Notes: generated from the sequence alone by a model not told the origin. A stretch of 64,000 nucleotides of DNA from Puia sp. (GCA_965214575.1 CBDCCE010000017.1:30256-94255), one strand, 5' to 3'. Shown: positions 11,804 through 28,419, numbered from the stretch's first letter. Numbers and translations: made by a program.

Positions 11804-11816
11804 GAGGCAAAATTAA

Positions 11817-11835
11817 TCACTTTCGCTTGCCAAAC
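11817..11835 (+). repeat. Left att core (direct repeat copy 1)
   Basis: TCACTTTCGCTTGCCAAAC is identical 19/19 to 27586-27604. The flanking bases differ on both sides (a|..|t versus t|..|a). Confidence 0.85.
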
Positions 11836-11873
11836 TTGTAAAATCAATACCATAGCCGCTTTCAGCGTTTCGA

Positions 11874-11899
11874 GGTACATTCAAGGTACAAGATTGGGC
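11874..11899 (+). promoter_or_regulatory. Candidate arm-type recombinase/regulator binding repeat (left end)
   Basis: GGTACATTCAAGGTACAAGATTGGGC resembles AGTACGTTCAGGGTACAAGATAAGGC at 27444-27469 (20 of 26 identical, same orientation). Both contain GTACAAGAT. Confidence 0.4.
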
Positions 11900-12164
11900 G
11901 CTAAAGTGAGGTTTAAAAAAATAAAGTTACGGTGAAATGGACAAAATCTATACGCTGCAAAACCTGCTGCATATTTATATACAAATAGTAGGAAACTTTT
12001 TTATGACCGTATCCTTATCCAAATTTGGCATTTAAAAAATTGTTTAAGACGCGATTATGGACCAATGGGAACTCGATTGAATATCATTCCCAAAAACGTC
12101 TAAAAGCCTTTACAGACGTGATTTTTATCCACTTTACCAAAATATTTTTTGCGGAGAGGCAAGG

Positions 12165-12467
12165 AAAATCTGTGCATAAATCAGAGGACTGAATACAGGC
12201 TTGACATACAGAATTTATCAACCAGGTTTTTCCACAGGTGTGGAAAAGGAAGAGGCGGAAATCTGAAAAGGAAAAAATACTTTCGGTATAGACAGAAAGC
12301 TGCCTGGTTGCAACAGACAGCAATTTGTATATCCCTAAGTTCGGTACTTTTTGCCGGAATCCACATTAGAGATATGGACTGCGGCTAGGATCATTACCTC
12401 GACCGTAAACGCTATCAAGGTGATTTAGTAAGCACAACGGGTATCATTTCTATGATGCCCGTTTTTT
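12165..12467 (+). ncRNA. Candidate island-encoded structured RNA (about 300 nt, class unknown; 5' end uncertain)
   Basis: There is no credible ORF here. Nested helices are visible:
- 12206-12215 pairs with 12322-12330 (ATACAgAATT/AATTTGTAT).
- 12219-12226 pairs with 12303-12310 (CAACCAGG/CCTGGTTG, 8/8).
- A hairpin at 12228-12247 (TTTTCCAC-aggt-GTGGAAAA).
- A hairpin at 12277-12289 (ATAC-tttcg-GTAT).
- 12393-12399 pairs with 12418-12424.
The region ends in a strong intrinsic terminator. Confidence 0.4.
12438..12467 (+). terminator. Rho-independent terminator
   Basis: The CGGGTATCAT-ttct-ATGATGCCCG stem is 10 bp with one G.U pair. TTTTTT follows. Confidence 0.75.
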
Positions 12468-12618
12468 ATATTGCTAAAATTATATTCTGGAACGTGTGAT
12501 ACCAAGTTTATTTACACGATGTTAATAAAAACGGCATTCTGAGTTTAACAAGCGAAATTTATCCACAGTAGTGCATAACTGGTAATTTTTGATTAAAAAC
12601 TGCACTAAATTTTGACCT

Positions 12619-13008
12619 ATGAAAATAATCCTTTGGTTACTGTTGGTTCCATTTTCTGGGTTCTCACAAAAGCCCAATATCAATACTATAGTTATTCCAG
12701 GAACGACGATGGAAAAGGCAACGATGGTTTTAATTGATAAGGGGTATATGATCGGGGCGGCTACGCCTAATTTGGTCACAACCGTACCTAAAAAATCAGC
12801 AAACCAAATCACAATCGTTTTTCAAATTCTAATACATGATTCAACTGGTTTTCTTCAAGGCACCTATGACGGAAAACAAATAGTGCCAGGTTTGTGGGAG
12901 CATTCAGAATCTTACGCGGGGCACTACAAAGGCGGGTCATTTAAAATAATGGACAGCCTGGCAAAAGCCATTGGCCAACCTGTGACTTACATAAAAAAAG
13001 GTCCATAG
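12619..13008 (+). CDS. Hypothetical secreted protein (island cargo)
   Basis: 129 aa ORF with an N-terminal signal peptide (MKIILWLLLVPFSGFSQKP). I recognise no family. Confidence 0.5.
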   Translation: MKIILWLLLVPFSGFSQKPNINTIVIPGTTMEKATMVLIDKGYMIGAATPNLVTTVPKKSANQITIVFQILIHDSTGFLQGTYDGKQIVPGLWEHSESYAGHYKGGSFKIMDSLAKAIGQPVTYIKKGP

Positions 13009-13206
13009 GAATGTCGGTATTGGCGTAAACCCTACCAGCAGACTACTCGGACCCTCGGAAGATCATACGATTGTTGGGCTGCAAATATATGCCTGGATTT
13101 GTTACGTCCCAATAGTGAAAAACTCTTATGCTGTCGCATTGGATTATTTTTATGTTTTGCTGGAAATTTGGTATTTTCACTTTGCATATTGTCTCAAATT
13201 CATACC

Positions 13207-13234
13207 GGCCCAAGTGTCTACCTGGGCCTTTTTT
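13207..13234 (+). terminator. Rho-independent terminator
   Basis: The GGCCCA-(10 nt)-TGGGCC stem is followed by TTTTTT. Confidence 0.5.
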
Positions 13235-13271
13235 AATCTGTACCGCTGTAAGACTGACAAAATTATAAGCG

Positions 13272-13466
13272 ATGCAACCGGTCCAAACACAAATACAAAT
13301 CGAATTTCTTTTAGCGGAAATTCAACGCCTGGAAAAAGCGCTTGATATTGCCATGAAGAACGACCGTGAGTTGCTTGAAACCAAAAAGCTGCTGCACGAA
13401 ATCAGATTGTTAAGGGAACGGCTTGGCGAGCTGTCAAAGCAAAAAGAAACCGCAAAGGATATTTAA
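13272..13466 (+). CDS. Hypothetical small coiled-coil protein
   Basis: 64 aa ORF with a heptad-like charged/leucine pattern (LLAEIQRLEKALDIAMKNDRELLETKKLLHEIRLLRERLGEL). Confidence 0.35.
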   Translation: MQPVQTQIQIEFLLAEIQRLEKALDIAMKNDRELLETKKLLHEIRLLRERLGELSKQKETAKDI

Positions 13467-13573
13467 AATTCCCTATTTTCATTGTTCATCTCATAAGTTT
13501 GTAAAATCAAATCCATGGCCTTTGTTTCTACAAAGGCCATATTTAGTTTTATATTTGCTAAATATATTAGCAA

Positions 13574-13774
13574 ATGCCAAATTACAAAATAACCATTTAC
13601 CTCAGAAGCGGCAAGAAAATGACCGGCATCCGGTATCATTCATCTCAAGATATTGGTATGATAAAATCGTTTGCAATAGAAAAATTCAAAAAGGCGTTCC
13701 CTCTTGAGCGGCTGGATTATGTGGACGTAGATCCGACTGCGCTCGGTAAGAACATTGACGTTAAAAATCTTTAA
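13574..13774 (+). CDS. Hypothetical small protein
   Basis: 66 aa ORF with an ATG start. I recognise no family. Confidence 0.35.
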   Translation: MPNYKITIYLRSGKKMTGIRYHSSQDIGMIKSFAIEKFKKAFPLERLDYVDVDPTALGKNIDVKNL

Positions 13775-14016
13775 AGCCATTTAAACCGCGCGAGAATTGT
13801 ATGGACAAGTATAAGCCTGCTCTTCTATCGAGATATTGAATTGTGGCGCGTTAAATCGACTATTAGAAGTAGTCGAGACGTTTGCTATGGTACATTGGTT
13901 TTGAAATGGATATGCACAATATGTTAATAAGAAAGTGTAGAATAATTCATCATTTGCGATCTGAGTCCCCTATATATTAGGTAAATTTGTTAAGCTCTTT
14001 TCCATAAAATTATGAA

Positions 14017-14047
14017 TTGGTCTTTATTGACCTTTTTTATAACTTTG
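14017..14047 (+). promoter_or_regulatory. Candidate Bacteroidota-type promoter (-33 TTG / -7 TAACTTTG)
   Basis: TAACTTTG at 14040-14047 fits the TAnnTTTG -7 consensus. A TTG lies 20 nt upstream. The terminator at 14123-14157 lies about 100 nt downstream, which suggests a short transcript. Confidence 0.3.
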
Positions 14048-14122
14048 CACCCTTGTAAGGAAGTAACAACTGAGATCGAAAGTGTATTTTGTTAACAATC
14101 ATTTTTGGTTTTAAAAATTCTG

Positions 14123-14157
14123 AAGCCTGGGGTTGATCTCCCAGGCTTTTGCTGTTT
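14123..14157 (+). terminator. Rho-independent terminator
   Basis: The AAGCCTGGG-(8 nt)-CCCAGGCTT stem is 9 bp and perfect. TTgcTgTTT follows. Confidence 0.55.
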
Positions 14158-14220
14158 CTACAGCGGCCATGAGTCGCCTTGAAGTACTCGATCATGTCAC
14201 ACGAGTAAATTTCAGAAGTT

Positions 14221-14364
14221 ATGCTACCTTACAAGGACCCTGCAGAACCCTGCCGTTGTACAGACGGCATCGTTTATACTCCGTGGATTACTGTAAAAGG
14301 TAAACGCGTATATAAAGGAAAAGGAAAGGTTTTCGCCTTTCCATGTACAAGATGTTCTAAATAA
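14221..14364 (+). CDS. Candidate 47 aa Cys-rich micro-protein (CxC...CxxC)
   Basis: Manual translation gives MLPYKDPAEPCRCTDGIVYTPWITVKGKRVYKGKGKVFAFPCTRCSK, which has four Cys in a zinc-ribbon-like arrangement. A terminator follows directly. Confidence 0.25.
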   Translation: MLPYKDPAEPCRCTDGIVYTPWITVKGKRVYKGKGKVFAFPCTRCSK

Positions 14365-14381
14365 GACGGGTTAGTCCGTAC

Positions 14382-14416
14382 GGGTCCGGCAGGTAAGAAC
14401 TGTCCGGGCCCTTTTT
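14382..14416 (+). terminator. Rho-independent terminator
   Basis: The GGGTCCGG-(14 nt)-CCGGGCCC stem has one G.U pair. TTTTT follows. Confidence 0.55.
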
Positions 14417-14518
14417 ATTAACGGTTTAAATGTACACTTCGATATTGAAGTACCCATATTTATTTTGTTGTGCTAAAATCGTGCCGGTAGCATTATTGAA
14501 ATTCAAGGCGTTATAAAC

Positions 14519-14767
14519 TCACAACCCATAAGCGTCACATATCTGCCGAGATTTCTCGTCGTCAGATAGCAGGGGGCTTTCGTCAACCACGTTAAGAGCT
14601 TCGTATTGACACAGCTCAGAAAATTTTCTGTCTACGTCTTCTGGTTTCCATCCTTTTTTAGCAGCGACTGCATCCGATAACAAGGCAAACAAAACATTCA
14701 CCCTTGCATTTAGGTAAATGTTCTGTTTAATCAATTCCGCTATCGTTTTCTCCAGATTTGTTATCAT
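14519..14767 (-). CDS. Hypothetical protein, last gene of the island minus-strand operon
   Basis: 82 aa ORF. It overlaps the stop of the tape-measure-like gene by 4 nt, which suggests translational coupling. Confidence 0.4.
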   Translation of the reverse strand: MITNLEKTIAELIKQNIYLNARVNVLFALLSDAVAAKKGWKPEDVDRKFSELCQYEALNVVDESPLLSDDEKSRQICDAYGL

Positions 14768-16305
14768 TGTCCTGCAATTATTTGAGAGTCGTTTACCGCT
14801 GATAGCATAACCTGAGTCATAATTTCCTTTATTTTTTTTGATCCTTCATTGATCGTTGTGAACGTATTTTGCATGTGTGGCGCGAGACCTCCGTTAATAG
14901 TTACATGGATAGTGGTGGACTTGTTTCCGACTGTCTTAGCAGCTGCTCCTGTACCTGTGGGGGACGATCCGGCTCCAGCTCCAGGCAAAGCACCTTTTTT
15001 AAACAAGCTCTTTGGAGAATCTGTTTTCTTTTCTTCAGCATGGTCCTTTGCAAAGTCCGCCATACCCTCGGTAAAGCCTTTGTGAAATGCCCCGCCCATC
15101 CTACTGCCAGCGTTAGCGATTGCGCTTATCGTTTGATTTGCGCCTTCGAGAACAAGGGACGGATTAAATGTTAACGTGCCATGTATAACTTTTCCTACTC
15201 CGGTAAACACATCGACCACTATTCGAGCAAACTCTTTCATCGTTTCCCATACTCCCATTAAACCCGCTCTAAATGTTGCAGAGTTCCGATATGCCGCTAT
15301 AAATCCAGCCGCGAGAAGCGCTATGCCACCGACAATTAGCGTGATTGGATTCGCCCAAAATGCCGCGTTTAAGAGCCATTGCGCAACCGTCATTAATTTA
15401 GTTGCTACAGTTGTTGCGACCATAACGGTTTCATAAATTAAAAGGCCTCCAGCCACAATACCTACAGCTACTCCGATAGCGATCAATAGTTCGCGATGTT
15501 TTGACATAAAGCTTATGCTGCCTTGAAAAAGATTTGCAACGCGCTCAAGTATTGGGGCCAATCCGGCCTTAAGTTTCATAACAACTCCGCCAACGCTCAT
15601 TTGTATTGCTCCCATTGTTTTATGATACCTGAAAAGTGGGTCCGAGTCAGCTGCTGCCTTTGCAGATCCGGCGAACTCAGTTTGCAATTCCTTTAAAATC
15701 ATTTTCTGAGCCTCAGCTGCGTGGCCTGTCTCAGCCAATTTTTTAATAATATCGGTCTGAGTTTGATTAAAGTTTACACCAACACGGCGTAGAGCTGTAA
15801 TACCTCTGGCGGGGTCCTGCAATGCTTTGCCGACCATGATCGCGGTTTCATTCAGTCCTTTATGCAGCCTGGTTGACATGTCTAATATCGACTGAGAAGC
15901 ATCGCCGAACGTAGTTTTCGTAACCGACGGAAACGTCAATAACTGCGCCTGCATGTCGGTTATTTCCGCCCTGGAGAATGCAAATTGCTTGGATAATCCT
16001 TTTGCACTTTCCTCTAAACCTTCAAACGTCAATCCTGCTACGCCCCTGGTGCTTTCTAATCCAGCTCGTACCTGCGATTCCGCAAGGTGCAACTCATGAA
16101 ATTTCTCAGCGCCAACTTTTGCATATTCAGCAACCTGGAAACCGCCAAATGCGAGACCAAGTACGCCTACCATACCTAAAGCAGTTTTTTTTATGTTGCT
16201 CATAGTGCCATGAAAGGCATTTGCCTCATGTTCCGCGCTTTTTAATTTACCTGTAAGCAAATCCTTAAGCGTAAGGGTATACTTAACTTCGTGTTCTTGT
16301 GACAT
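14764..16305 (-). CDS. Phage tail tape measure-like protein
   Basis: 513 aa. The segment GKALQDPARGITALRRVGVNFNQTQTDIIKKLAETGHAAEAQKMILKELQTEFAGSAKAAA matches the conserved tape-measure core I know from phage and GTA tape-measure proteins. There is a central block of transmembrane-like helices and a Gly/Ala-rich tail. Confidence 0.7.
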   Translation of the reverse strand: MSQEHEVKYTLTLKDLLTGKLKSAEHEANAFHGTMSNIKKTALGMVGVLGLAFGGFQVAEYAKVGAEKFHELHLAESQVRAGLESTRGVAGLTFEGLEESAKGLSKQFAFSRAEITDMQAQLLTFPSVTKTTFGDASQSILDMSTRLHKGLNETAIMVGKALQDPARGITALRRVGVNFNQTQTDIIKKLAETGHAAEAQKMILKELQTEFAGSAKAAADSDPLFRYHKTMGAIQMSVGGVVMKLKAGLAPILERVANLFQGSISFMSKHRELLIAIGVAVGIVAGGLLIYETVMVATTVATKLMTVAQWLLNAAFWANPITLIVGGIALLAAGFIAAYRNSATFRAGLMGVWETMKEFARIVVDVFTGVGKVIHGTLTFNPSLVLEGANQTISAIANAGSRMGGAFHKGFTEGMADFAKDHAEEKKTDSPKSLFKKGALPGAGAGSSPTGTGAAAKTVGNKSTTIHVTINGGLAPHMQNTFTTINEGSKKIKEIMTQVMLSAVNDSQIIAGQ

Positions 16306-16307
16306 TC

Positions 16308-16694
16308 CTATGAAATTTTATAATCTAATTCTATTATTTGTCTTAATCCTCCAACGCCTCCAGAATACTCAACCGATTTGCATTTATATGTACCGTTGCG
16401 TTCAGGTAAAACTTTGTCTACGAGCTGCACATTATCGCCCTGTCTTACATAAGGAATTCCGAACGTTGTAAACTTTCCGTGAAGTCCATTGTAATAATAT
16501 TTTTTGAGTTCGTTTGTTGCAAGGGCTACAAGCTGGTCTATAGTTGTTGCTCCCAGGTATACCAGGTCCCTTCGTTCGCCGTCAACATTCGGAGGCCAGT
16601 TGTCTGTTGAATTTTTTTTCTGAAATGTTTTTACTCCTTTAGAAGTTAGTGTTACCAAAACCTCTATCCGCTTGAGTTTTGTTTTTTTTTCCAC
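16308..16694 (-). CDS. C-terminal part of a gpD/XkdQ-like tail hub protein (downstream frame of a split gene)
   Basis: 128 aa ORF whose only start is a GTG inside an A9 run. It lies in the +1 frame relative to ORF 16639-17535. The C-terminus (GDNVQLVD..NGTYKCKSVEYSGGVGGLRQIIELDYKIS) resembles the ends of late-control-D-like proteins. Confidence 0.4.
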   Translation of the reverse strand: MEKKTKLKRIEVLVTLTSKGVKTFQKKNSTDNWPPNVDGERRDLVYLGATTIDQLVALATNELKKYYYNGLHGKFTTFGIPYVRQGDNVQLVDKVLPERNGTYKCKSVEYSGGVGGLRQIIELDYKIS

Positions 16695-17535
16695 CTTGTT
16701 TATTGATCTCTCCGGTTTCTTCGGAAATAGTGTTGTGTGCTACAGCGCTCAATACAATTTCGTCTAGCCGCCTATACGTTAACTCGTCTGAAATTATCCC
16801 GCCTTGAATTTGATAAGTTTTAGAATAAGATGGCGGGTTATTAAAAATAAAAACTTTTGTTCCGTCTGCTATTGCGTCCTCTTCATTGTAAACAAAGCTG
16901 CCGCATCTTAACTCGTTACCTCTAAAATATGCTTCAAAATGAAAATCTTTTTTTAATTGCGCGAGTACTTCGCAAATAGTCGTTGAATCAGAACTTCTAT
17001 AAATCCCTACTACGGTTTGTGTTTTTTTACTTACTGTAAAAGGCAGTCCAACAAGAGTTATCATGTCTGCAAGCATGTCCTCTACCGTGCCGGTGTAATT
17101 TTTGTTTGGGGAGTTGGCCTGTTTCAACGTCCACATATTGTCTTCGCACTCAATTTCAATAGGAATTTTACTTGACACTTTCGAAATGTATCCTTCGAAA
17201 ATTGTATTCAGGGGTGCTACTTCATTATGTCTGCTGTCAAAATATTTGTATCCTGCCTGGATAGTAACCTTGTCACCACGCAAAAATAAAGGTGGCGTAT
17301 CTGAGAATCCTCCTATAGACTTGTTGGTTCCAGCAAGTGAATAGCGTCTGCCGTTCTCGTCTGTTACGTAGACTTTTTTGGGGATTACAATTTTAGCTTT
17401 ATCCGTCAACGTCTTCCACGAGCTTTCCGATTCAAAAGTGTGAACAAAATTAAATGTTAACGTTTTATTGCGACCGGGATAATCGGTTGTCGGAGCCTGC
17501 GTAAATGTAATTACAGAAATATTTCTAAACATCAT
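16639..17535 (-). CDS. N-terminal part of a gpD/XkdQ-like tail hub protein
   Basis: 298 aa. The pattern PLFLRGDKVTIQAGY..NTIFEGYISKVSSKIPIEIECEDNMWTLKQ is typical of the phage late control D / XkdQ family. The frame ends 13 codons after the A9 run. Confidence 0.4.
   Translation of the reverse strand: MMFRNISVITFTQAPTTDYPGRNKTLTFNFVHTFESESSWKTLTDKAKIVIPKKVYVTDENGRRYSLAGTNKSIGGFSDTPPLFLRGDKVTIQAGYKYFDSRHNEVAPLNTIFEGYISKVSSKIPIEIECEDNMWTLKQANSPNKNYTGTVEDMLADMITLVGLPFTVSKKTQTVVGIYRSSDSTTICEVLAQLKKDFHFEAYFRGNELRCGSFVYNEEDAIADGTKVFIFNNPPSYSKTYQIQGGIISDELTYRRLDEIVLSAVAHNTISEETGEINKQGGKKNKTQADRGFGNTNF
16682..16690 (-). other. A9 homopolymer (T9 on the plus strand) at the junction of two overlapping frames
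   Basis: The minus strand reads CAA GGT GGA AAA AAA AAC AAA. Removing one A, or a +1/-2 shift, joins the 298 aa ORF to the 128 aa ORF. Confidence 0.8.
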
Positions 17536-17755
17536 TGTCGGAAACGATTGCGCAGCTTATAGCTGCATGTTGCGCGGTGCGTTCGTAGATTTTAAATGTC
17601 TCGCCTGAAATGGTCCTTTTCTTTTCATGGTTCGTATAACTCCCATTATTGTTAAGGCACCAATATTCGATTTTGGGTTCCGTTAATCCCATGCGCGTCA
17701 TCGCGTCAACCAGCGTGTTAGATTCTGGATTTTCTTTTAGTGGTGGGTATAGCAT
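17525..17755 (-). CDS. Hypothetical protein
   Basis: 76 aa ORF, tightly packed with an 11 nt overlap on the downstream gene. Confidence 0.35.
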   Translation of the reverse strand: MLYPPLKENPESNTLVDAMTRMGLTEPKIEYWCLNNNGSYTNHEKKRTISGETFKIYERTAQHAAISCAIVSDNDV

Positions 17756-17757
17756 GA

Positions 17758-18048
17758 TTATTTCTTTGTGCGGTTTGCAATTTCAGCCATCTTCGCGGCG
17801 GCGCTCGTTACAATAGGGTTATCTACTTTTGTGATAACCTTTTCCTTTTTGGGTTGGGCTATCGAAGTGTTAACGGGCTTGCTGTACTTATTTTTTAGTT
17901 CGTTCATTTTAGCGGCTGCTGCATTTACTCGCTCGGCGCTGGTTTCACGGCTGATTTTCTTTGTCATAGCGATATTGTTTTTAATTGTCTTAAACTGCTT
18001 CATTGTATTTTCGCCATTCAGGTAAGCGTTTAGTAATCTTGTGTCCAT
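17758..18048 (-). CDS. Hypothetical Lys/Ala-rich protein
   Basis: The ORF-track call (17758-18114) runs through a terminator hairpin, so it is trimmed to the ATG at 18048 (MDTRLLNAYL). It contains an internal repeat AAAAKMNELKN / SAAAKMAEIAN. Confidence 0.35.
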   Translation of the reverse strand: MDTRLLNAYLNGENTMKQFKTIKNNIAMTKKISRETSAERVNAAAAKMNELKNKYSKPVNTSIAQPKKEKVITKVDNPIVTSAAAKMAEIANRTKK

Positions 18049-18060
18049 TGTAAGAAATTG

Positions 18061-18103
18061 AAAAAATAAAAACCAGGCGAGTCTAATATTAAACTCACCT
18101 GGC
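18061..18103 (-). terminator. Rho-independent terminator
   Basis: The minus strand has a CCAGGTGAGT-(10 nt)-ACTCGCCTGG stem with one G.U pair. TTTTTATTTTTT follows. Confidence 0.7.
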
Positions 18104-18258
18104 AAAAAAGACAATTGGCTCTATGGAGGATTGAAATCCTAAGCCCTCGCCGTTTATGAAAGCACTTTAGTAAGCCGCTGGCTTAACTGAGGGCGTTGCG
18201 CTTGGCAAAATTCCGGGTGCCGGGTTAACCGGTTTGTCGTTATTCATGATTGATTTAT

Positions 18259-18456
18259 TTACTGTACTGTTAAACTAATTTGTAAAGTTTTCAATTCCAT
18301 TTCAACGAACCATTTCTCGCTATCGTGCGAAATCAGTCCACTCGAATAGCTGACGATTTCTGTTCCTGGATTTGCGTTCCATGTGTTCCTGACGAATTCG
18401 AAAAATGTACCGAGTTCTTTCGGATCAAATTCGAGTCTTACTGTTTTATTTTCCAT
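18259..18456 (-). CDS. Hypothetical protein
   Basis: 65 aa ORF. It lies 7 nt downstream of the 236 aa ORF. Confidence 0.3.
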   Translation of the reverse strand: MENKTVRLEFDPKELGTFFEFVRNTWNANPGTEIVSYSSGLISHDSEKWFVEMELKTLQISLTVQ

Positions 18457-18463
18457 TGTTTAG

Positions 18464-19174: not shown

Positions 19175-19188
19175 ATGTTTTGGTTTGT

Positions 19189-20333: not shown

Positions 20334-20363
20334 ATAAAAGCCCGGATTTTACTCCAGGCTTTT
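20334..20363 (-). terminator. Rho-independent terminator (hairpin usable on both strands)
   Basis: The minus strand has an AGCCTGGA-(6 nt)-TCCGGGCT stem with one G.U pair. TTTTAT follows. It lies just downstream of the ORF ending at 20380. Confidence 0.55.
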
Positions 20364-20379
20364 GACATTTTTGTTACTA

Positions 20380-20571
20380 CTAAGCAATTTTCTTCAGGTC
20401 GTTGATTGTAACGTACTGCTGAATCAGCTTGCCGTCTTTATCGAAGCCCGTTACCTGTATATCGCCGTCCTCACACATTTCTATAAGGTCTACCGGCGCT
20501 CCCACCTTGAATGAGTGTCCGTTTTCGTTGTTGCTTTTCTTGATCTGGTACATCGGGTTCGGGGTTTTCAT
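20380..20571 (-). CDS. Hypothetical small protein
   Basis: The ORF-track call (123 aa) overlaps the terminase 3' end. It is trimmed to the internal ATG at 20571 (MKTPNPMYQIKK.., 63 aa). Confidence 0.3.
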   Translation of the reverse strand: MKTPNPMYQIKKSNNENGHSFKVGAPVDLIEMCEDGDIQVTGFDKDGKLIQQYVTINDLKKIA

Positions 20572-20713
20572 TTTGTTTTGATTTGTTGATGAAGTAAAAG
20601 TAATATCCGGTTTGGGCCTGGCTGCAATTATTCGATAGGCTGGAAAAAGTCGGAACAGGTTTCTACGTGAGAGTTGCGAAGGTGCCTTCGACGAATGGAC
20701 GGTTTTTAGCGGT

Positions 20714-22210
20714 TTAATACCAATTTTTTCCCGTGATATCATTTCTGCCAAATGTGCTGTTTAATCCGGAGAATCCTCGCAGTTTTGTACGGAATTCGTT
20801 AGGGAACGCTACGACAGCAGCATATCTAAAGAGGTCCGCAAAGTGTCCGTACTGCTCGTACGTCTCTCCGGTTTCCTGGTCCTTGAACGTTTTCTTCAAT
20901 GCGGTACCGTCCGAGTCCTCTAACAAATACAATAAGTCAGCTATCATTTTAGTACAATGATCGCCTATTACGATTCTGACTCCTTTATATCCCTCCTCTC
21001 CCCCTGCGAAAACGTCGTTGATAAATTCTTTACTCTTAATAACCGAAGGATTTCCGCCGCCCTTTCCGTCTTTCCCTTTTTTCGGTACCCGGTCGTTAGG
21101 CCTGAATTGTTCAAGCGCTTGAATAATAATACTAATATCATCATGCCCCCTTTCATTCCTGGTATCCTCATGACGACCGGACGCATCCCCGGCTACAGTC
21201 ATGCCCTCGGTATGGCCTTTATATCGCTTACATATCTCCCTACAAACAGCCGACGTGTTATTATTTGGACTCCTTAGCTGGATCTCGTCGACCATGTATA
21301 ACGTGTTCATCGATTTCTGAAAAATACCACAGCTTACACCGGGCTTAACATTAAAGTCAAAGGATACAATAAGCGGAAGTTTCGGATTGTACGCAATTTT
21401 ACAAGTATTGACACTCATTTTGAATGTAGAAAAGAACGTGCCTCCGACAATCTTACTTCCCCATCTGCCTAACGCGTATATTCCGAAATAATACGGGTCG
21501 CTCTTCTCTTTACCTAATATCTCCGCCAATGACTGAGGGGTTATGTGCGGATTGTCTCTGTAGGTTGAGTGCATTACCGTGTAAGCGCTAACTACAGTCT
21601 CCCTATTGCCGATATCGGTATAAGTTTTACTACTGAACGAAAGTTCATCCTTGCCCTCAAAGAATCGTTTCCAAAACCAATTGTCGCGGTAGTCTCCCTC
21701 CTTTACCTCAGGGTTAATAGTAAATATTTCCTGGAGATACTCGGCCCTGTTAGTTCTTATGGTCGACGTAATTGTGATGAAGTCGCTGTAATTAATTATA
21801 TCCTCCTCATACCATGCGCCCGTTGGGTCTTTGACGGATTTAATAGATGTTACGTCGTCACAACCACGCGCTATGAAACGGTTGCCATTCAATGTACAAA
21901 CGATCTCCAGAGGATTGAGTTTAAACTCAAAGAACTCTTTCAATCCGAGCGTTATTATGGTCTGCTTTATTGTCTCATAGCTGCTCTCTTTTATTGAGTT
22001 GTATCTATTACGGATAAGCATGTACAGGAAATACGGCTCGTAAACGCATCGAAAGATTAGTTTCTTGGCAGCAAAATCGGACTTACTGGACCCTCGGCCT
22101 CCATATAAAATGAGATAGCGGTCCTTATTTTCTACCAACGGGATAAACCGCTCGTTAATAAGATCCTCCCAAGCTCCCCAATTGATTATAACGTCTTGCT
22201 GTGGTTTCAT
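20714..22210 (-). CDS. terL: Phage terminase large subunit (PBSX/Terminase_3-like)
   Basis: 498 aa. It has the Walker A motif LILYGGRGSSKSDFAAKK and Walker B-like acidic motifs (GAWYEEDI), with a C-terminal nuclease-like half. A small terminase-like ORF lies directly upstream. Confidence 0.85.
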   Translation of the reverse strand: MKPQQDVIINWGAWEDLINERFIPLVENKDRYLILYGGRGSSKSDFAAKKLIFRCVYEPYFLYMLIRNRYNSIKESSYETIKQTIITLGLKEFFEFKLNPLEIVCTLNGNRFIARGCDDVTSIKSVKDPTGAWYEEDIINYSDFITITSTIRTNRAEYLQEIFTINPEVKEGDYRDNWFWKRFFEGKDELSFSSKTYTDIGNRETVVSAYTVMHSTYRDNPHITPQSLAEILGKEKSDPYYFGIYALGRWGSKIVGGTFFSTFKMSVNTCKIAYNPKLPLIVSFDFNVKPGVSCGIFQKSMNTLYMVDEIQLRSPNNNTSAVCREICKRYKGHTEGMTVAGDASGRHEDTRNERGHDDISIIIQALEQFRPNDRVPKKGKDGKGGGNPSVIKSKEFINDVFAGGEEGYKGVRIVIGDHCTKMIADLLYLLEDSDGTALKKTFKDQETGETYEQYGHFADLFRYAAVVAFPNEFRTKLRGFSGLNSTFGRNDITGKNWY

Positions 22211-22211
22211 G

Positions 22212-22586
22212 TTAGAAGGGTTTGGGGTTGTCAGTTATAGGAACTGCTTTTGAAGGATGTGTTAATTCAGTAAATGGTATATCCTGTATTTCTGCTGCCG
22301 GTTGCTGAGGTCTACGTAGGCTATGAATTACCTGAACAACGCGGGGTCCGCTATCTACTGTAACCTCAGTTCGCGCGAGCTTAGGCTCCAGGAATTCTAC
22401 CACGCTTACCAACAAGCGAGCAAAATCTCCGTCGCTCATGGTATCAAGGAATGTATTAAACCGTTTATGGTTTCGCATTGCGTTGTAGAGTTCCTGGGTG
22501 CGGCTAATATGCTCTTTTGTTTTTTCGCTTAATGCTCCCTCGGGCCTGCCTGCCGGGTTGCCCGATTGTCCCTTTTTGAATGCCAT
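22212..22586 (-). CDS. Putative small terminase / DUF5681-type protein
   Basis: 124 aa. The N-terminal KKGQSGNPAGRP motif is common in phage small-terminase-like proteins. The stop lies 1 nt before the terL start. Confidence 0.4.
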   Translation of the reverse strand: MAFKKGQSGNPAGRPEGALSEKTKEHISRTQELYNAMRNHKRFNTFLDTMSDGDFARLLVSVVEFLEPKLARTEVTVDSGPRVVQVIHSLRRPQQPAAEIQDIPFTELTHPSKAVPITDNPKPF

Positions 22587-22588
22587 AA

Positions 22589-22744
22589 TTATTTTATTAT
22601 CGGGTACACTTGCTTTAATAGTTCCATATAAAGTGTTACAAGCTCTTTGTTCGAAAGACCTTGTAATTCTTTTTCGAATTTCTTCTGATTGTCGGAAATG
22701 AATGCCATTAATAGGCGCTCTGTTCTTGTGCTTTTCTGTTTCAT
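22589..22744 (-). CDS. Candidate 51 aa protein
   Basis: Manual translation gives MKQKSTRTERLLMAFISDNQKKFEKELQGLSNKELVTLYMELLKQVYPIIK. The stop lies 2 nt before the small-terminase-like ATG. Confidence 0.25.
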   Translation of the reverse strand: MKQKSTRTERLLMAFISDNQKKFEKELQGLSNKELVTLYMELLKQVYPIIK

Positions 22745-22814
22745 TATTGTGTGTTTTTTATGTGTTTTTGTACCTTAACCGGACCTAAATCCGTTATTAT
22801 ATTGGTTTTCAGTG

Positions 22815-23660
22815 TTATTTATGTTTGGATAGGGAAAGTGAATCGCAAATCCGGTAAAATGTTCCTAACCTGACCTTACCTGAATTTTTCAGAAGACTAC
22901 TGTATTTCCGATCTGTTACCTCGGCTTTGTAATCTGCATGCGTCGAACTGACCTTGTGAAACCATTCCCGGCCCGACTCTCCAAACTCTGAGGCGAGCGC
23001 CAATCCAATCCGAACCCAATTATCATAGCCTTCAGTAACATTCAGCTGCTCAGCTACGATCCTATCGACATACGCCTGGACCTTTATTGCGTCTTTGCCG
23101 GTTGAATTTGCTGCCTGTTTCGCCGGTTTCGCATACACAAGGCCGGTATATCTGACGGCGTTCGGGTTTATGAAACTGGTTTCCGGTGTATTGTCGCTTA
23201 CTCCGCGCAGCCTGTTGACGTTTTTGCCGCTTGGATCTATTGGAACATTCGCTTTTTCGAAAAGCTCGTAAAGGGCCTGAAAATGCGCCTGGTGAGCTTC
23301 CGGATATTTGATCGGTATAACGGCGTAGACCCCGCGCCCGGAAACGGACAGTCCGGCAAATAGAATAAAATCAAACTGCCTGAGCCAGGCGAGAAAATGC
23401 AGCCAATCCGTTACGCCTTGGTCCCATTCTATACAAATCAGTCCCGTGTGTATACCTGCCTCGCGATTTTTACTAACACACGAAATGAAATAACAGGGCA
23501 GCATTGCTTTAGCCCGGTCGCGATCTTCTTTATCGGCCATTTCACGAATTCTCTCGACTTGCAACCGGTACAAATCGGTACAAAGCGCTTCCCAGAGAGT
23601 CGTTTGCTGTCCGACCCTGTCGAAATAGTTATTAAAACGGGTAATAATTGTATATAACAT
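22815..23660 (-). CDS. Primase (BT4734/VirE-N AEP-like domain plus a PriCT-2-like C-terminal domain)
   Basis: 281 aa. AMLPCYFISC..GLICIEWD..FAGLSVSGRGVYAVIP resembles the BT4734-like primase N domain. The C-terminal GYDNWVRIGLALASEFGESGREWFHKVSS resembles PriCT-2. Confidence 0.55.
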   Translation of the reverse strand: MLYTIITRFNNYFDRVGQQTTLWEALCTDLYRLQVERIREMADKEDRDRAKAMLPCYFISCVSKNREAGIHTGLICIEWDQGVTDWLHFLAWLRQFDFILFAGLSVSGRGVYAVIPIKYPEAHQAHFQALYELFEKANVPIDPSGKNVNRLRGVSDNTPETSFINPNAVRYTGLVYAKPAKQAANSTGKDAIKVQAYVDRIVAEQLNVTEGYDNWVRIGLALASEFGESGREWFHKVSSTHADYKAEVTDRKYSSLLKNSGKVRLGTFYRICDSLSLSKHK

Positions 23661-23680
23661 TGTAAGTCATTGTAAAAATC

Positions 23681-23786
23681 AACCGGTCCAATGGTCCAAT
23701 TGTACCGGTACAGTCGTTTTTGTACCGGTACTGGTTTGGTACAGTCTACTATATAGGAGACTGTACCACTGTACCACTGTACCGAC
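23681..23786. promoter_or_regulatory. Iteron block, candidate island origin of replication
   Basis: The block fills the intergenic gap between the ATPase stop and the primase start. It contains:
- GGTCCAAT x2 in tandem (23685-23700);
- TGTACCGGTAC x2 (23701-23711 and 23721-23731);
- GGTACAGTC x2 (23707 and 23738);
- the inverted repeat GGTACAGTCT/AGACTGTACC around the AT-rich actatatagg;
- ACTGTACC x3 in tandem (23760-23783). Confidence 0.6.
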
Positions 23787-24851
23787 CTATACCAAAAGCC
23801 TCCAATTCTGGTCCGGCCCCTGATTTATCATTCCGTGAATTTTCATTTCTTTAAACATGGCTTTGGAGGTATTCAAGCCCTTGCCCGAAACCTTCATTAT
23901 TCTTTCAATAGCGTCGCTATAAGCAAAGGAGTTTGGCGGCGCAAAGGCCTCGTCTGTGATCTTACGGATCAGTTCAACCCGTTTTCTGTCCTTTTCGCCT
24001 GGATCAGCTTTCGCAGCCTCTCCCAAATAGGCATGATACCCTTTCGACTTATCGTACACGAACTGAATAGCTGGAGCGTCGGAGTTTCCGCCGTTACGCA
24101 GGAGCTTCGCCTCGATGGTGCTAATCTCTCCTTCCCTTTTGATATTTATTACGCTTTCTGATTTGCGCTGAAGTTGAGAACCGAGGTGACCGCGCTCTTT
24201 TCCGGACCCGCCCGGATTAAGGTGCATGATTACAATAACTGGGGCTTTGAATTGAATCGCAAGCTGTTCAAACGCTTTTACCAGGCCATTGCTCAGCATG
24301 GCATCGTTAACGTCGTCTATGTAGTCAGCTCCGCCGTCAAGAGCTATTAAATGAATGCCTCCGAACTTATCGGCAGCGCCCTGACAGATTTCCTGGGTAA
24401 CGACAGCGTAATCCGCGAGAGACAGGCGGCGAATGTTATAAGAAAGGAAATTTTCCGGGCATGTCTGTAAACCAGCGCGCCGGATTATTGATCGGATATT
24501 TTGTTGATGCCGGGACCGGCTTTGCTCGGTTTCGATATGAACAACAGCGAGACCGTGAGAGTTTGTTAGCACGTCCCAACCTGGAAAGCCGTCGTATTCG
24601 CCCGACGCGATTGCGCCGGATAGCGTTACCCCGAGCAGGGAGGTTTTTCCGGCCTTAGGGTCGGCAGCGATTGTAGTTATGTTTTCCGGCGTGCTGAGAA
24701 TTGCTTCGCCGAATTTTATGATAGCACGCGGTTCGGTCTCGATAGTGGTATCGGTAACGCGTAGGGTTTCATATTTCTGTAAGAAATCTTTTACAGATAA
24801 GGCGTATACGTCTTGGTCTTGTGCGAAATAATTTGTATCTTGTGGGTGCAT
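23787..24851 (-). CDS. RecA-fold P-loop ATPase (AAA_25/RepA-like putative replicative helicase)
   Basis: 354 aa. It has Walker A ADPKAGKTSLL and Walker B IHLIALDGGADY. It is paired with the primase gene. Confidence 0.55.
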   Translation of the reverse strand: MHPQDTNYFAQDQDVYALSVKDFLQKYETLRVTDTTIETEPRAIIKFGEAILSTPENITTIAADPKAGKTSLLGVTLSGAIASGEYDGFPGWDVLTNSHGLAVVHIETEQSRSRHQQNIRSIIRRAGLQTCPENFLSYNIRRLSLADYAVVTQEICQGAADKFGGIHLIALDGGADYIDDVNDAMLSNGLVKAFEQLAIQFKAPVIVIMHLNPGGSGKERGHLGSQLQRKSESVINIKREGEISTIEAKLLRNGGNSDAPAIQFVYDKSKGYHAYLGEAAKADPGEKDRKRVELIRKITDEAFAPPNSFAYSDAIERIMKVSGKGLNTSKAMFKEMKIHGMINQGPDQNWRLLV

Positions 24852-24864
24852 TTAAAAGAATTGG

Positions 24865-24903
24865 AAAGCGTTCCGGCTTGCAGGCCATTGGAGCGCTTTT
24901 TTT
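24865..24903. terminator. Strong hairpin with a T7 tract on the plus strand; separates the int-xis unit from the replication unit
   Basis: The AAAGCGTTCC-GGC..GCC-GGAGCGCTTT stem is followed by TTTTTTT on the plus strand. On the minus strand the U tract is interrupted. Confidence 0.5.
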
Positions 24904-24922
24904 GTGAAGCTGCCTATAGTGG

Positions 24923-25231
24923 TTATTTGGATTTAGCGCGAAATCTTACGCCCGGTTTGCGGGGACCTGATTTTATCCAGGCTGATAGTTCGGCTTTCGA
25001 AAAATAAAGGAATTTGCCCTTTTTGTATGCGTTGAAAGACTTTGCGCGGACGTAGCTCCGGATTGTGTCCTCTGATACTCCCAGATATGCAGCAGCTCCA
25101 TCAATTTTTAATAATTGATCTTCGTCCGCGACAGACTTAGTAGACGGTTTTAATGCATCTTGGACAATCTGTCTGATAAGCTCCAAGCTTTCTGATGAAA
25201 GCTCTTGCGTAATGGTAATATTGTTGCTCAT
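24923..25231 (-). CDS. xis: Excisionase-like HTH_17 DNA-binding protein
   Basis: 102 aa. LLKIDGAAAYLGVSEDTIRSYVRAKSFNAYKKGKFLYFSKAELSAWI is the excisionase/MerR-type HTH pattern. It lies in the integrase transcription unit. Confidence 0.6.
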   Translation of the reverse strand: MSNNITITQELSSESLELIRQIVQDALKPSTKSVADEDQLLKIDGAAAYLGVSEDTIRSYVRAKSFNAYKKGKFLYFSKAELSAWIKSGPRKPGVRFRAKSK

Positions 25232-25431
25232 GACCGATTGCCTTTTGTGGGTTCGGTAATTAACTGAGGCTGAACGGTAGTGACTGTGGGCGCGGGAACC
25301 TGACCTGAGTAGGTCGGATGTTTAATATCCAAGAGCAAATCTTCGATGTGCCGCAATCTCTTGTCTATTATTTCGAACGGATTGTTCATTTGCTGAGTGT
25401 CATTTTTTATTGACCCAACAAAATTACTCAA
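25228..25431 (-). CDS. Hypothetical small protein
   Basis: 67 aa ORF with a 4 nt ATGA-type overlap on the xis-like gene. Confidence 0.35.
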   Translation of the reverse strand: MSNFVGSIKNDTQQMNNPFEIIDKRLRHIEDLLLDIKHPTYSGQVPAPTVTTVQPQLITEPTKGNRS

Positions 25432-25476
25432 TGCTCTTGGCGAGTTCCGGGATGCTCCGGAGCGAGTAGGTGTAAA

Positions 25477-26199
25477 TTATTCCGAGTCTGCGTCTATCCT
25501 CTTTTCGAGAATGTTGGCTTCGTCCGTAGCCGTAGCGATGCCTTCAGGAGAATTGAGCAAGGGAATAACGCTCCTGATTCTTTCCAGTTTGTTTATACTT
25601 GCCTGATTCGAGCCGTTCGGAGCTTTTTTCTCAAGTCCTATTCGGGCTTGTCTATCGAGGATCGCGGAATATTCATCTTTCAATTTTCTTGGAGGCACTT
25701 CTCGTAAATATTCGGCGACAGAAATTCTGTCGTAAAAGCAAATCAATGCGATCTGTTTTTGTGATAACTGAACATTGTCCACATTGCTATTGTAGTGCCT
25801 ATTCCGGAAATTAGAATTATTCAGATACTTTAAATAGTCAATTAGCCCAAGTAGGCAAGCCATTTTATAATACTGTTCGGTCAGACTGCCATTAAGTAAA
25901 TCGCTTAGCTCTGCGTAATATAACTTTTCGATTCGACCGCCAATCCTCTGTAATTCCTTTTGTTTTTTCGCTTCATCCGACAATGGGCTTAACGGATTTT
26001 CAACCGGAGAATATTTTTTCTCGCCTTCGAATGAATCTTTTCTCCAGATATGAAAATTTTCTTTCTCCTCTACAGTCGGAGCGGTCCAATATTTTACGCC
26101 CGGTTCTCTAATCGCTTGTACTGGATGGTTAAGCAATCCGTTCGCATACTTGTCAATATCAAGCGTAGGCAAAAAGGCTATTTGTAGTTCGGGCAGCAT
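25477..26199 (-). CDS. Hypothetical protein co-transcribed with the integrase
   Basis: 240 aa ORF. Its start overlaps the integrase stop by 1 nt. I recognise no family. Confidence 0.45.
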   Translation of the reverse strand: MLPELQIAFLPTLDIDKYANGLLNHPVQAIREPGVKYWTAPTVEEKENFHIWRKDSFEGEKKYSPVENPLSPLSDEAKKQKELQRIGGRIEKLYYAELSDLLNGSLTEQYYKMACLLGLIDYLKYLNNSNFRNRHYNSNVDNVQLSQKQIALICFYDRISVAEYLREVPPRKLKDEYSAILDRQARIGLEKKAPNGSNQASINKLERIRSVIPLLNSPEGIATATDEANILEKRIDADSE

Positions 26200-27422
26200 T
26201 ACTGGTTATTGAGTTTTGAAAAATCAAAATCGTCCATCCTCGCGGCGGCTGCAACCATCGCCGGATTTCTGATTTCAGAATAGATCTGAGTTGTTTTGAT
26301 ATCTGAGTGAGACATCATTTTACTCTGAGTATGCAAGTCGGTGCCTCTCTCTTGCTGAAGCACAGCCCACGTATGCCTAAAACCGTGAAAGGTCATGTGT
26401 TTTGTTATTCCAGCGGCCTTAACCCATTTGTGCATTTTCCTATTATTTTCAGTTGAATAAGCCAGGCCCGGAAATACAAACTCTTCAGGATCTCTCCTTT
26501 CTCCTATCAATGCAACCGAAACGGCGCTATTAGGAACGGGAATAGCCATTGCTTTTTTGTTTTTCTCAGTTATAAAGGAGATATAATCTCCGGTCGCCTC
26601 ACTCCGCTGCACTTCAGACCATTTCAGCTTTGCTATATCCCCGTATCTTAAATTGGTCAGCGCTGAGAAAATCGCCGCGCTTTTCAATACGGGTAGCTCA
26701 GGGAAAGGTTTGTCAATTAACATCTGCAACTCCTCAGCGGTCAAATAGTCGATTTTCGTTTCCTTTTCAGGTATTGACTCCACCAATGAACTCAGATCAG
26801 TAGTAATAATTTGCGGATCGGCAGCGTAGGCCTCTTTAAGCGCGGCTTTGAATTTATGAAAATATGTCGCGGCCGTATTTTGACCCAAAACGGAGAGAAG
26901 GTGCCTTTTAAAGCCATCGCAAAAAGATCTATTAAGGCTGGTTATCGGTAACGATCCTGCTGTATGCTGTTTTAGGTGCTTAATAAAGCTCGTCCAACCG
27001 TCAACCGTCGAGCCAGTTCTCTCCTTCGCCAAACCCTCGCAGTATACGATAAAATCGACCGTTTTTGCCTTTGCGGCTAAAAATGAGTAATCGCCCTTAT
27101 TAATCATTCGCTGGCGGTTCACTTCCCCGGCTACAGCTTCGAGCAGGGTTTCTTCGTTGGCGAGGGACTGTTCAGCTGTCAGCTTTCTTTTTTTTGGCTT
27201 GCCAGACTTGTCCAGTACCGGACGAATCGCCTTATTTGGTTTCCCATGCTTATCTACGTATTCCTGAATTTCATACTCAATGTCGCTATAAAGGAATTTA
27301 CCGGTAAACTCCCGACGTGTCTCCGCTTGGGTCTCGGAGGGCTTAATTGGAGGGTAAAAATCATAGTAAAGACTAATGAGATTACCCTTAATCGGTTTGC
27401 GTCTTAAATTAACTTTTGCCAT
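26199..27422 (-). CDS. int: Tyrosine site-specific integrase (Bacteroidota arm-binding/SAM-like type)
   Basis: 407 aa. The C-terminal catalytic motifs are HGFRHTWAVL (HxxR) and IKTTQIYSEI (nucleophile Tyr). The N-terminus MAKVNLRRKPIKGNLISLYYDFYP is typical of Bacteroidota element integrases. Confidence 0.9.
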   Translation of the reverse strand: MAKVNLRRKPIKGNLISLYYDFYPPIKPSETQAETRREFTGKFLYSDIEYEIQEYVDKHGKPNKAIRPVLDKSGKPKKRKLTAEQSLANEETLLEAVAGEVNRQRMINKGDYSFLAAKAKTVDFIVYCEGLAKERTGSTVDGWTSFIKHLKQHTAGSLPITSLNRSFCDGFKRHLLSVLGQNTAATYFHKFKAALKEAYAADPQIITTDLSSLVESIPEKETKIDYLTAEELQMLIDKPFPELPVLKSAAIFSALTNLRYGDIAKLKWSEVQRSEATGDYISFITEKNKKAMAIPVPNSAVSVALIGERRDPEEFVFPGLAYSTENNRKMHKWVKAAGITKHMTFHGFRHTWAVLQQERGTDLHTQSKMMSHSDIKTTQIYSEIRNPAMVAAAARMDDFDFSKLNNQ

Positions 27423-27443
27423 AGGGTTTTAAGGTACGATTAA

Positions 27444-27469
27444 AGTACGTTCAGGGTACAAGATAAGGC
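27444..27469 (+). promoter_or_regulatory. Candidate arm-type binding repeat (right end)
   Basis: AGTACGTTCAGGGTACAAGATAAGGC is preceded by a further GGTAC at 27433. It is the counterpart of 11874-11899. Confidence 0.4.
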
Positions 27470-27517
27470 CAAAAATCCACATATCAAAGCCCCGTTAAAA
27501 ACATCTTTTAAATGAGA

Positions 27518-27551
27518 AAACCCGCTCCAGTATTGACTTTGGAGCGGGTTT
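27518..27551 (-). terminator. Hairpin terminator just inside the right att, downstream of the host gene that enters the island
   Basis: The AAACCCGCTCCA-(10 nt)-TGGAGCGGGTTT stem is 12 bp. On the minus strand TTTTCTCATTT follows. Confidence 0.65.
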
Positions 27552-27585
27552 GCTATATGTTTTCTGTGGGTTTAATATTAGCCGT

Positions 27586-27604
27586 TCACTTTCGCTTGCC
27601 AAAC
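27586..27604 (+). repeat. Right att core (direct repeat copy 2)
   Basis: TCACTTTCGCTTGCCAAAC. Read on the minus strand, it encodes the last five codons plus the TGA stop of ORF 27586-28395 (FGKRK*). Confidence 0.85.
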
Positions 27605-28395: not shown

Positions 28396-28419
28396 GATTG
28401 GAATTACTGCTGTAAATTT

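Follow-up and report, generated by a model that had tools for sequence, protein, structure and literature searches.

What occupies the 15.8 kb that separate lipA from its upstream neighbour in a stretch of Puia sp. DNA? The stretch comprises 64,000 nt (GCA_965214575.1, CBDCCE010000017.1:30256-94255) and is, at its full length, referred to as the window in the following. An earlier reading, made from the sequence alone and called the sequence-only reading here, described an island bounded by perfect 19-bp direct repeats and placed in the end of a protein-coding gene, leaving the type of element unaddressed. The interval is a site-specific integrative element of the tyrosine-recombinase type, which regenerates the terminal FGKRK-stop of its target gene, and it is neither a plain island nor a whole prophage. 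With a probability of roughly 0.65, the element represents a phage satellite whose host is of the Chitinophagaceae type (Bacteroidota); the integration of the element is directly visible, and its dependence on a helper phage would follow from its gene content.

The locus is defined by the features given below, in which L001 and L124 denote the two related loci with an orthologous site (L-numbers are used for all loci compared).

10796..11803, minus strand: lipA (lipoyl synthase; Radical_SAM and LIAS_N matches), with the element now between it and the target gene
11817..11835: lipA-side copy of the attachment (att) core, i.e., the integrase-distal junction; exact 19/19 repeat, 13 nt from the lipA ATG, with the L001 breakpoint within it
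11836..27604, minus strand: inserted element, 15,769 bp counting one core copy, missing from L001 and L124
27586..27604: integrase-side copy of the att core, from which the target gene takes its five final codons and its TGA; this 19-mer is kept in L124
27586..28395, minus strand: target gene for a conserved 269-aa secreted protein without a Pfam family, C-terminus ..AIMFGKRK

The 19-mer TCACTTTCGCTTGCCAAAC is found exactly twice in the window, both times on the plus strand and with a 19/19 match, while the bases outside the two copies differ on the left as well as on the right. Spacing from repeat to repeat is 15,769 bp, and none of 100 shuffles of the window gave such a repeat, even if 2 mismatches were allowed. 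In minus-strand orientation, the right copy consists of the last base (G) of a Met codon, followed by F-G-K-R-K (TTT, GGC, AAG, CGA, AAG) and the stop TGA, and its gene starts with the ATG at 28395, encoding a signal peptide. The longer, GTG-started version of this open reading frame (ORF; 27586-28482) was rejected as it overlaps a gene on the opposite strand, namely the OsmC-family gene (28420-28866, plus strand) lying directly upstream of the target gene. Every factual statement of the sequence-only reading, including the distance of 13 nt between the left copy and the lipA ATG at 11803, is borne out here.

Further evidence comes from uninterrupted versions of the same site. L001 is a 4,208-bp contig (CBCZYJ010000069.1, assembly GCA_965193675.1) that was found by exact look-up of the 269-aa target protein, and it carries the 269-aa gene, one 19-mer and then, 13 nt further on, lipA. 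The empty-site string predicted in the sequence-only reading, ..GCGATTATGTTTGGCAAGCGAAAGTGATTAATTTTGCCTCATGATGCAG.., is present exactly in this contig, and both sequences are 99.9 % identical over 9088-11835 and 27586-29062, with alignments overlapping by exactly the 19-mer. A second empty site is found in L124, a 577,805-bp contig of a related genome with the order OsmC, 269-aa gene, lipA; here, the target protein falls into the same 90 %-identity cluster, lipA follows after 16 nt and the 19-mer is intact. Since L001 and L124 both carry the uninterrupted site, the 15,769 bp between the repeats are a site-specific integrative element, and the insertion is a precise, integrase-mediated one into the 3' end of a protein gene. 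Neither is the 19-mer a dispersed repeat in any of the sequences compared, being single-copy in L001 and L124, nor are all relatives filled at this position. ARAGORN finds no tRNA or tmRNA gene anywhere in the window, and thus none at either end, as had been stated before. GC content of the element is 38-42 % over much of its length, compared to ~45 % in the flanks. The insertion is probably recent, and the empty site of L001 is compatible with either excision or a population which never carried the element.

As a mechanism, this type of attachment site is real but ordinary, and the locus represents a clean textbook case complete with empty site. Phage 21 and e14 integrate into the 3' end of icd and regenerate it. 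In the same way, the att core of the element extends over the final codons and stop of its target, and the replacement is identical, leaving the target protein unchanged. In contrast to these two, the target is a secreted-protein gene upstream of lipA, and the integrase is of the SAM_5 type that is typical of Bacteroidota. The integrase recombined the 19-bp core of the element with the same 19 bp in which the target gene ends, and the core copy brought in by the element restores the last five codons and the stop.

What the element encodes was assessed by Pfam and PHROG scans, in which all recognisable genes lie on the minus strand while about ten ORFs remain without a detectable family.

26199..27422, minus strand: tyrosine integrase, 407 aa (PF00589 Phage_integrase, E 5e-18; PF13102 Phage_int_SAM_5, E 1e-11; phrog_1, E 1e-39)
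25477..26199, minus strand: 240-aa protein of family F6, with members in the window, L007, L122 and L123
24923..25231, minus strand: HTH_17 excisionase/AlpA-like regulator (PF12728, E 8e-12; phrog_66 'excisionase and transcriptional regulator', E 4e-11)
23787..24851, minus strand: AAA_25 (RepA/DnaB-like) ATPase, putative replicative helicase (PF13481, E 1.4e-6; 40 % identical to the L123 homologue)
22815..23660, minus strand: primase (PriCT_2 PF08707, E 1.7e-12; phrog_15962 DNA primase; weak BT4734-like N-terminal match)
22212..22586, minus strand: small DUF5681 protein, 124 aa (PF18932, E 1.5e-7), with its stop 1 nt before the ATG of the following gene
20714..22210, minus strand: large terminase (TerL), 498 aa, intact (PF04466, E 5.6e-33)
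19503..20075, minus strand: 190-aa protein with N-terminal HTH_17, a second excisionase-type DNA binder (PF12728, E 1e-7; TIGR01764 below cut-off)
18464..19174, minus strand: F2 protein, 236 aa, all-helical
17525..18456, minus strand: three small ORFs (65, 118 and 76 aa)
16308..17535, minus strand: baseplate central hub (gp27 / Mu gp44 / VgrG fold), which reads as 298 + 128 aa
14764..16305, minus strand: tail tape-measure protein, 513 aa (phrog_27166, E 1e-30)

Starting at the right repeat, the gene order is integrase, 240-aa ORF, 67-aa ORF, HTH_17 protein, AAA_25 ATPase and primase, continuing with the 124-aa DUF5681 protein, the 498-aa TerL and the 190-aa HTH_17 protein. These are followed by ORFs of 113, 236, 65, 118 and 76 aa, the hub (298 + 128 aa), the 513-aa tape measure and an 82-aa ORF. 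Modules for integration, regulation and replication (integrase, HTH_17, AAA_25 helicase, primase) are thereby united within 15.8 kb. The integrase gene, which was correctly recognised in the sequence-only reading together with its HxxR and Tyr motifs, begins 163 bp from the right repeat and displays the catalytic signature R..HxxR..Y in the motifs LRYGD, HGFRH and TQIYSE. For the 240-aa F6 protein, no match was obtained in Pfam, PHROG, NCBIfam, PADLOC or the PDB. TerL retains every column that is invariant across 29 homologues. The DUF5681 protein before it shares both this position and an N-terminal KKGxSGNPxGRP motif with all members of the element's family and with some related ~40 kb phages; by its position, it is a putative small terminase (TerS-like), and the shared N-terminus would fit a small terminase that has diverged in specificity.

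Equally informative is what the element does not carry. Portal, major capsid, sheath, tube, head-tail connector and lysis genes are all missing from it according to Pfam, PHROGs and NCBIfam, and it does not hold the gene set of an intact tailed prophage (portal, major capsid, tail tube/sheath, lysis cassette). Moreover, a tblastn search using portal, capsid, sheath and tube proteins of phages (the L039 phage proteins as well as sheath and tube of L119) returned nothing in the element, in the whole window or in six related small elements. This is not a matter of sensitivity, because in the ~38 kb phage contig L039 Pfam readily recovers Portal_Mu (E 3e-74), Mu_F, a ClpP-type protease and Phage_capsid_2. 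With 240 aa as the largest unassigned ORF, the element, judged by its genes, cannot build a virion alone. Homologues of Sid, Psu, Delta, Epsilon and the P4 alpha primase-helicase are likewise not detected in Pfam, PHROG and NCBIfam scans, nor are those of CpmA/B, Ppi and Stl in the Pfam and PHROG scans.

The element is not a singular case. Its nearest TerL homologues are 53-79 % identical and reside in small elements of Chitinophagaceae-type genomes and metagenomes, with Ginsengibacter hankyongi, a Puia metagenome-assembled genome (MAG) and a 'Bacteroidetes bacterium' MAG as named sources. Scanning of genome contigs with TerL gave at least five close loci, and a metagenome scan added one new short member; in IMG/VR, a single-protein TerL scan gave no match, and a profile scan gave only phage-type TerLs with at most 51 % identity. 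For four of the relatives, both ends could be mapped, and all four use tRNA genes, unlike the window element with its protein gene.

L006: 12,469 bp, at tRNA-Ser
L122: 14,890 bp, at tRNA-Arg
L005: 15,844 bp, at tRNA-Leu
L123: 16,207 bp, at tRNA-Arg

When seven elements were compared all-against-all (two of these loci being incomplete contigs), a shared core emerged consisting of TerL (7/7), F2 (7/7), integrase (6/7), DUF5681 (6/7) and primase (5/7), and the window element has all five of these family markers. In a neighbour-joining tree of 53 TerLs, those of the small elements form an exclusive clade with 97/100 bootstraps, apart from 45 phage TerLs. Every phage locus contains a portal-sized ORF (~410-470 aa) within 5 kb downstream of TerL, whereas the small elements contain none. 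Which virion-gene homologue is carried varies from member to member: Mu_F occurs in L002, L005 and L122, a protease domain in L123, the hub in the window, L007 and L123, DUF6046 in L006, and a tape measure in the window only. Each of these proteins is a low-copy component of the virion or of its assembly, and no major building block is among them. By homology, the element belongs to a monophyletic, size-constrained family. L122 (1859-16796) and L123 (889-17126) are distinct members occupying the same tRNA-Arg(acg) site in two metagenomes, next to amino-acid permease and PQQ-dehydrogenase genes, and one of them carries Mu_F while the other carries protease and hub. In the 12.5-kb element of Ginsengibacter hankyongi BR5-29, a tRNA-Asp gene (L006 15180-15254) lies inside the direct repeats.

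The nearest phage relatives are contigs of ~38-43 kb (L039, L119 and L120, from IMG/VR), to which the element is related by TerL (46-51 %), hub (~53 %) and tape measure (47 %). They carry Portal_Mu, Mu_F, protease, capsid, DUF2586 sheath and tube, then tape measure, DUF6046 and hub, and in addition baseplate, fibres, lysis genes and an integrase; by sequence, they are Mu-like temperate myoviruses of Bacteroidota. In comparison, the element lacks Portal_Mu, Mu_F, protease, capsid, sheath, tube, fibre and lysis genes. Some of these phages share with it the small protein that precedes TerL and bears this N-terminal motif. The small elements are about one-third the size of the ~38-43 kb relatives, and a satellite of about one-third of the helper size is usual, as for P4 and P2 or for Staphylococcus aureus pathogenicity islands (SaPIs) and 80alpha. 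In L039, L040-L043 and similar contigs, a 203-aa ORF is situated just before TerL in place of any DUF5681-type protein, and its N-terminus (GIYKITN..YIGQS) looks, by eye, like that of a GIY-YIG homing endonuclease.

Among the proteins of the family, F2 is the most distinctive. A hidden Markov model of F2 (hmmsearch) matches small elements only among all fetched loci, including ~70 with phage-type TerL. Exhaustive searching of 1.84 billion representative proteins yielded 13 relatives, and a word-index search gave the query alone. Its AlphaFold2 (AF2) model comprises ten helices with a pLDDT of 94, and neither the PDB (profile and Foldseek) nor BFVD (Foldseek) nor PHROGs gave a significant match; compared to the structure of Sid, only a non-significant Foldseek match (E 8.9) was obtained. 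In L123, F2 is located directly after a truncated protease gene, where Mu-like phages have the scaffold domain. F2 as a scaffold by homology is unsupported (hhalign 0.3 %), and a scaffold-like role, hinted at only by this position and the helical prediction, is speculation. F2 is, in any case, a compact, conserved and uncharacterised protein that is open to testing.

Hub and tape measure deserve attention as the two tail proteins of the element. Both pieces of the hub are matched by phrog_4930, while all hub homologues are single ORFs of ~411 aa. The break coincides with an A9 run (16683-16691), and one added A restores the frame that matches the homologues. An AF2 model of the full-length homologue P0122 (54 % identical; pLDDT 84) matches hubs and spikes of extracellular contractile injection systems (eCIS), Mu gp44, T4 gp27 and VgrG (Foldseek E 1e-15 to 1e-11). 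Similar irregularities are seen in lipA of the window, in which two 1-nt A deletions in A-runs of the 3' part are the only indels compared to L001, giving a product of 335 aa with aberrant C-terminus versus 312 aa in L001. Homopolymer errors in the assembly of the window are the likely cause, and the name of a related record ('..._np1212') suggests nanopore assemblies. Because the split amounts to a 1-nt change in an A9 run and A-run deletions of the same type occur in lipA, the hub frameshift is more likely a sequencing error, and pseudogenisation was rejected as the less likely reading. As for the tape measure, it shares 47 % identity from end to end with that of the myovirus contig L120.

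Taken as a satellite, the element might work as follows. If a Mu-like temperate myovirus of ~40 kb replicates in the same cell, the element would excise and replicate, with a cluster of DnaA boxes (see below) as candidate origin for replication by the AAA_25 helicase and the primase. Its own terminase would then package its DNA into procapsids made by the helper, where a down-sized head could take up a single genome and a full-sized head a concatemer of roughly three copies. Exit would occur in particles built of the helper's major structural proteins and equipped with helper tails, and hub and tape measure of the element may enter those tails by replacing the helper's tail-initiation complex. 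F2 would be the candidate factor for redirecting assembly. A more specific proposal, for which the odds appear clearly worse than even and which is offered as tentative only, is a Bacteroidota class of satellites that bring their own terminase and one or two low-copy virion proteins, obtain the high-copy parts from a Mu-like helper and use F2 as a new assembly-redirecting or scaffold factor. The low-copy proteins in such a division of labour would be hub, tape measure, DUF6046, Mu_F or prohead protease, depending on the member, and some of these nucleate assembly.

Alternatively, the element could be the remains of a prophage, i.e., a temperate Mu-like myovirus of ~40 kb which integrated here, lost most of its morphogenesis genes by deletion, kept integrase, replication genes, terminase, hub and tape measure, and maybe still excises but has no route of transfer. 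The identity of 47-54 % between its TerL, hub and tape measure and genes of ~40 kb myoviruses would be explained in this way, and so would the split hub ORF, the scrambled order of hub and tape measure relative to the phages and the 2.7-kb integrase-distal region that is nearly free of ORFs. Decay, however, hardly accounts for at least seven elements that agree in their core, vary little in size and occupy five different att sites. As their TerLs are monophyletic (97/100), the small format is old and inherited rather than the result of independent decay. In addition, F2 is specific to the family and missing from phages, the invariant residues of TerL are all kept, the hub is split at a homopolymer in an assembly with the same error type in lipA, and the repeats are perfect with an empty site at 99.9 % identity. 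Because of the shared core, the TerL clade, the lack of a portal after TerL and the restriction of F2 to small elements, a satellite lineage is favoured over debris, and the remnant explanation is considered unlikely.

Two further explanations retain a functional element with a different way of life. In one of them, the element is an autonomous miniature temperate phage that needs no helper, and its capsid, portal and tail proteins, diverged beyond recognition, are encoded by the small ORFs (65-240 aa). Tailed phages of 11-19 kb do exist, and about ten ORFs without detectable family are available besides TerL, tape measure and hub. Yet, none of these ORFs exceeds 240 aa, as compared to portals of ~410-470 aa in the related phages, and F2, being the largest of them in the structural region, is confidently predicted to be all-helical and neither HK97-like nor portal-like. 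Moreover, the hub is of the contractile-tail type but homologues of sheath or tube are missing, and lysis genes were not detected; a miniature phage is hence highly improbable. In the other one, the phage-like genes of an integrative island would serve the host as a defence or decoy, e.g., if variants of terminase, hub or tape measure poison the assembly of an infecting myovirus, and transfer would take place by another route. Satellites and islands often carry assembly-interference functions, and the virion-gene homologues of the family are, as mentioned, all of the low-copy kind, including some that nucleate assembly. For PICIs (phage-inducible chromosomal islands), tail-assembly interference systems have been described (PMC11364771). 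No defence system or family is matched by PADLOC in the element, though, and the conserved pair of small protein and TerL as well as the replication module exceed what interference would need; besides, interference and satellite transfer can coexist. A purely defensive island therefore is quite improbable, albeit somewhat less so than the miniature phage.

Several observations also speak against the satellite interpretation itself. There is no helper phage within the 64 kb of the window, and no member of the TerL clade is found in IMG/VR, the best TerL of which is 51 % identical. Position and N-terminal motif are the only grounds for a TerS role of the DUF5681 protein, and a comparison of F2 with the C-terminal domain of phage protease/scaffold proteins gives an hhalign probability of 0.3 %. 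As sequenced, the hub ORF is split, and one structural gene would be a pseudogene if the A9 run is real. The order of hub and then tape measure is the reverse of that in the phages (tape measure, DUF6046, hub) and could reflect rearranged debris. Finally, packaging and a circular form of the element are predictions, and the roles of F2, hub and tape measure are conjecture.

How does such a satellite relate to those already described? Experimentally studied phage satellites mostly come from Proteobacteria and Firmicutes. Capsid-forming PICIs (cfPICIs) share with the element the format of a chromosomal element of ~10-16 kb, an integrase, an AlpA-type regulator, a primase/replicase, TerS and TerL and, presumably, the reliance on a helper for part of the virion. 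TerL is listed as a core component of cfPICIs (PMC10085698), and the element contains TerL (PF04466) together with a TerS assigned by position only. However, cfPICIs bring genes of their own for major capsid protein, prohead protease, portal and head-tail adaptor and connector, and only the tails are taken from the helper, whereas the element has none of these genes but carries the tail genes for hub and tape measure, which are absent from cfPICIs. Furthermore, its host belongs to the Bacteroidota, and the sequences have nothing but generic domains in common. With this opposite pattern of capsid and tail genes, the element is not a cfPICI. Classical PICIs/SaPIs and P4 are similar in size, in the integrase at one end, the excisionase (Xis)/AlpA-like HTH protein, primase/helicase and packaging-specificity gene, and in comprising about one-third of the presumed helper. 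In contrast to the element with its intact TerL, they lack TerL and tail genes, and classical PICIs/SaPIs redirect packaging via TerS, Ppi or Rpp while using the TerL of the helper; as another difference, tRNA genes are the usual sites of the element's relatives. Published descriptions of marine virion-encapsidated mobile elements list small terminases but no large ones (PMC9618062). Another counterpart is ML_43_3791, one of the putative satellite 'G8' circular virome scaffolds (Bellas et al. 2015; PMC4490671). It has 15,770 bp, was obtained from a virus-size fraction and was taken to be a satellite. Its published annotation comprises terminase, phage tail, Prim-Pol and integrase, so that size and gene mix are as in the element, in addition to ParB and resolvase, by which it differs; this comparison is one of descriptions only.

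In the literature searched, no satellite family of Bacteroidota was found described, and no satellite was found which combines its own TerL with hub and tape measure but is devoid of capsid genes. The small family of the element, not found in this literature, would thus represent a variant within the phage satellites. If its members are indeed satellites, the known repertoire of helper exploitation becomes wider, as the packaging motor and the tail-initiation complex would be replaced instead of the capsid being remodelled with a borrowed terminase. Such elements of 12-16 kb are likely scored as 'incomplete prophages' by annotation pipelines.

Insertion also has consequences for the neighbouring genes. 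Given the gap of 13-16 nt in the empty sites, lipA is probably co-transcribed there with the 269-aa gene, and since lipA follows so closely on the target stop, the insertion would split it from its upstream gene. An additional feature is found just inside the element:

27518..27551, minus strand: hairpin with a 13-bp stem and T-run, 35 nt past the regenerated stop codon

This hairpin is likely a terminator supplied by the element. With a terminator behind the target stop and lipA now 15.8 kb away, lipA would therefore have to be transcribed from within or through the element. A scan for sigma-70 promoters gave 39 sites versus 33 expected, using a model that does not cover promoters of Bacteroidota.

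Short repeats are further present near both ends of the element:

11873..11899, plus strand: matching arm-type-like repeats, ~40 nt inside the lipA-side end
27432..27469, plus strand: patch of RGGTACR / GTACGTTCAGGGTACAAGATAAGGC repeats close to the integrase-side end, putative arm-type sites

Copies of RGGTACR form two patches, at a distance of ~40 nt from one end of the element and ~120-155 nt from the other, and a 25-nt stretch of the integrase-end patch is 84 % identical to 11875-11899. Both patches are candidate arm-type sites for the integrase. In the 3' end of the primase gene, 22819-22850 resembles the integrase-side att junction in inverted orientation (26/32); the similarity extends past the core into host bases, and could be due to chance or represent a secondary or ancestral att-like site.

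The integrase-distal part of the element comprises the following features:

11836..14518, plus strand: low-GC region with short ORFs only
12619-13008: ORF for a 129-aa secreted protein, in the integrase-distal region
13574-13774, plus strand: 66-aa ORF, kept in the elements of L002 (46 % identity) and L122 (34 %)

GC content of this 2.7-kb stretch is 38 %. It contains a non-coding block of ~150 nt (12135-12290) with 78 % identity to L122 16314-16467, positioned ~300-450 nt from the integrase-distal end in both the window element and L122. As an RNA, the conserved block was rejected, folding no better than shuffles (z = -1.4), and Rfam gave no match in the island. Of the 12 DnaA-box-like motifs (TTWTNCACA) in the window, 4 cluster at 12171-12567, including the palindrome TTTTCCACAGGTGTGGAAAA, and the region 12135-12567 may accordingly serve as an origin or a regulatory site.

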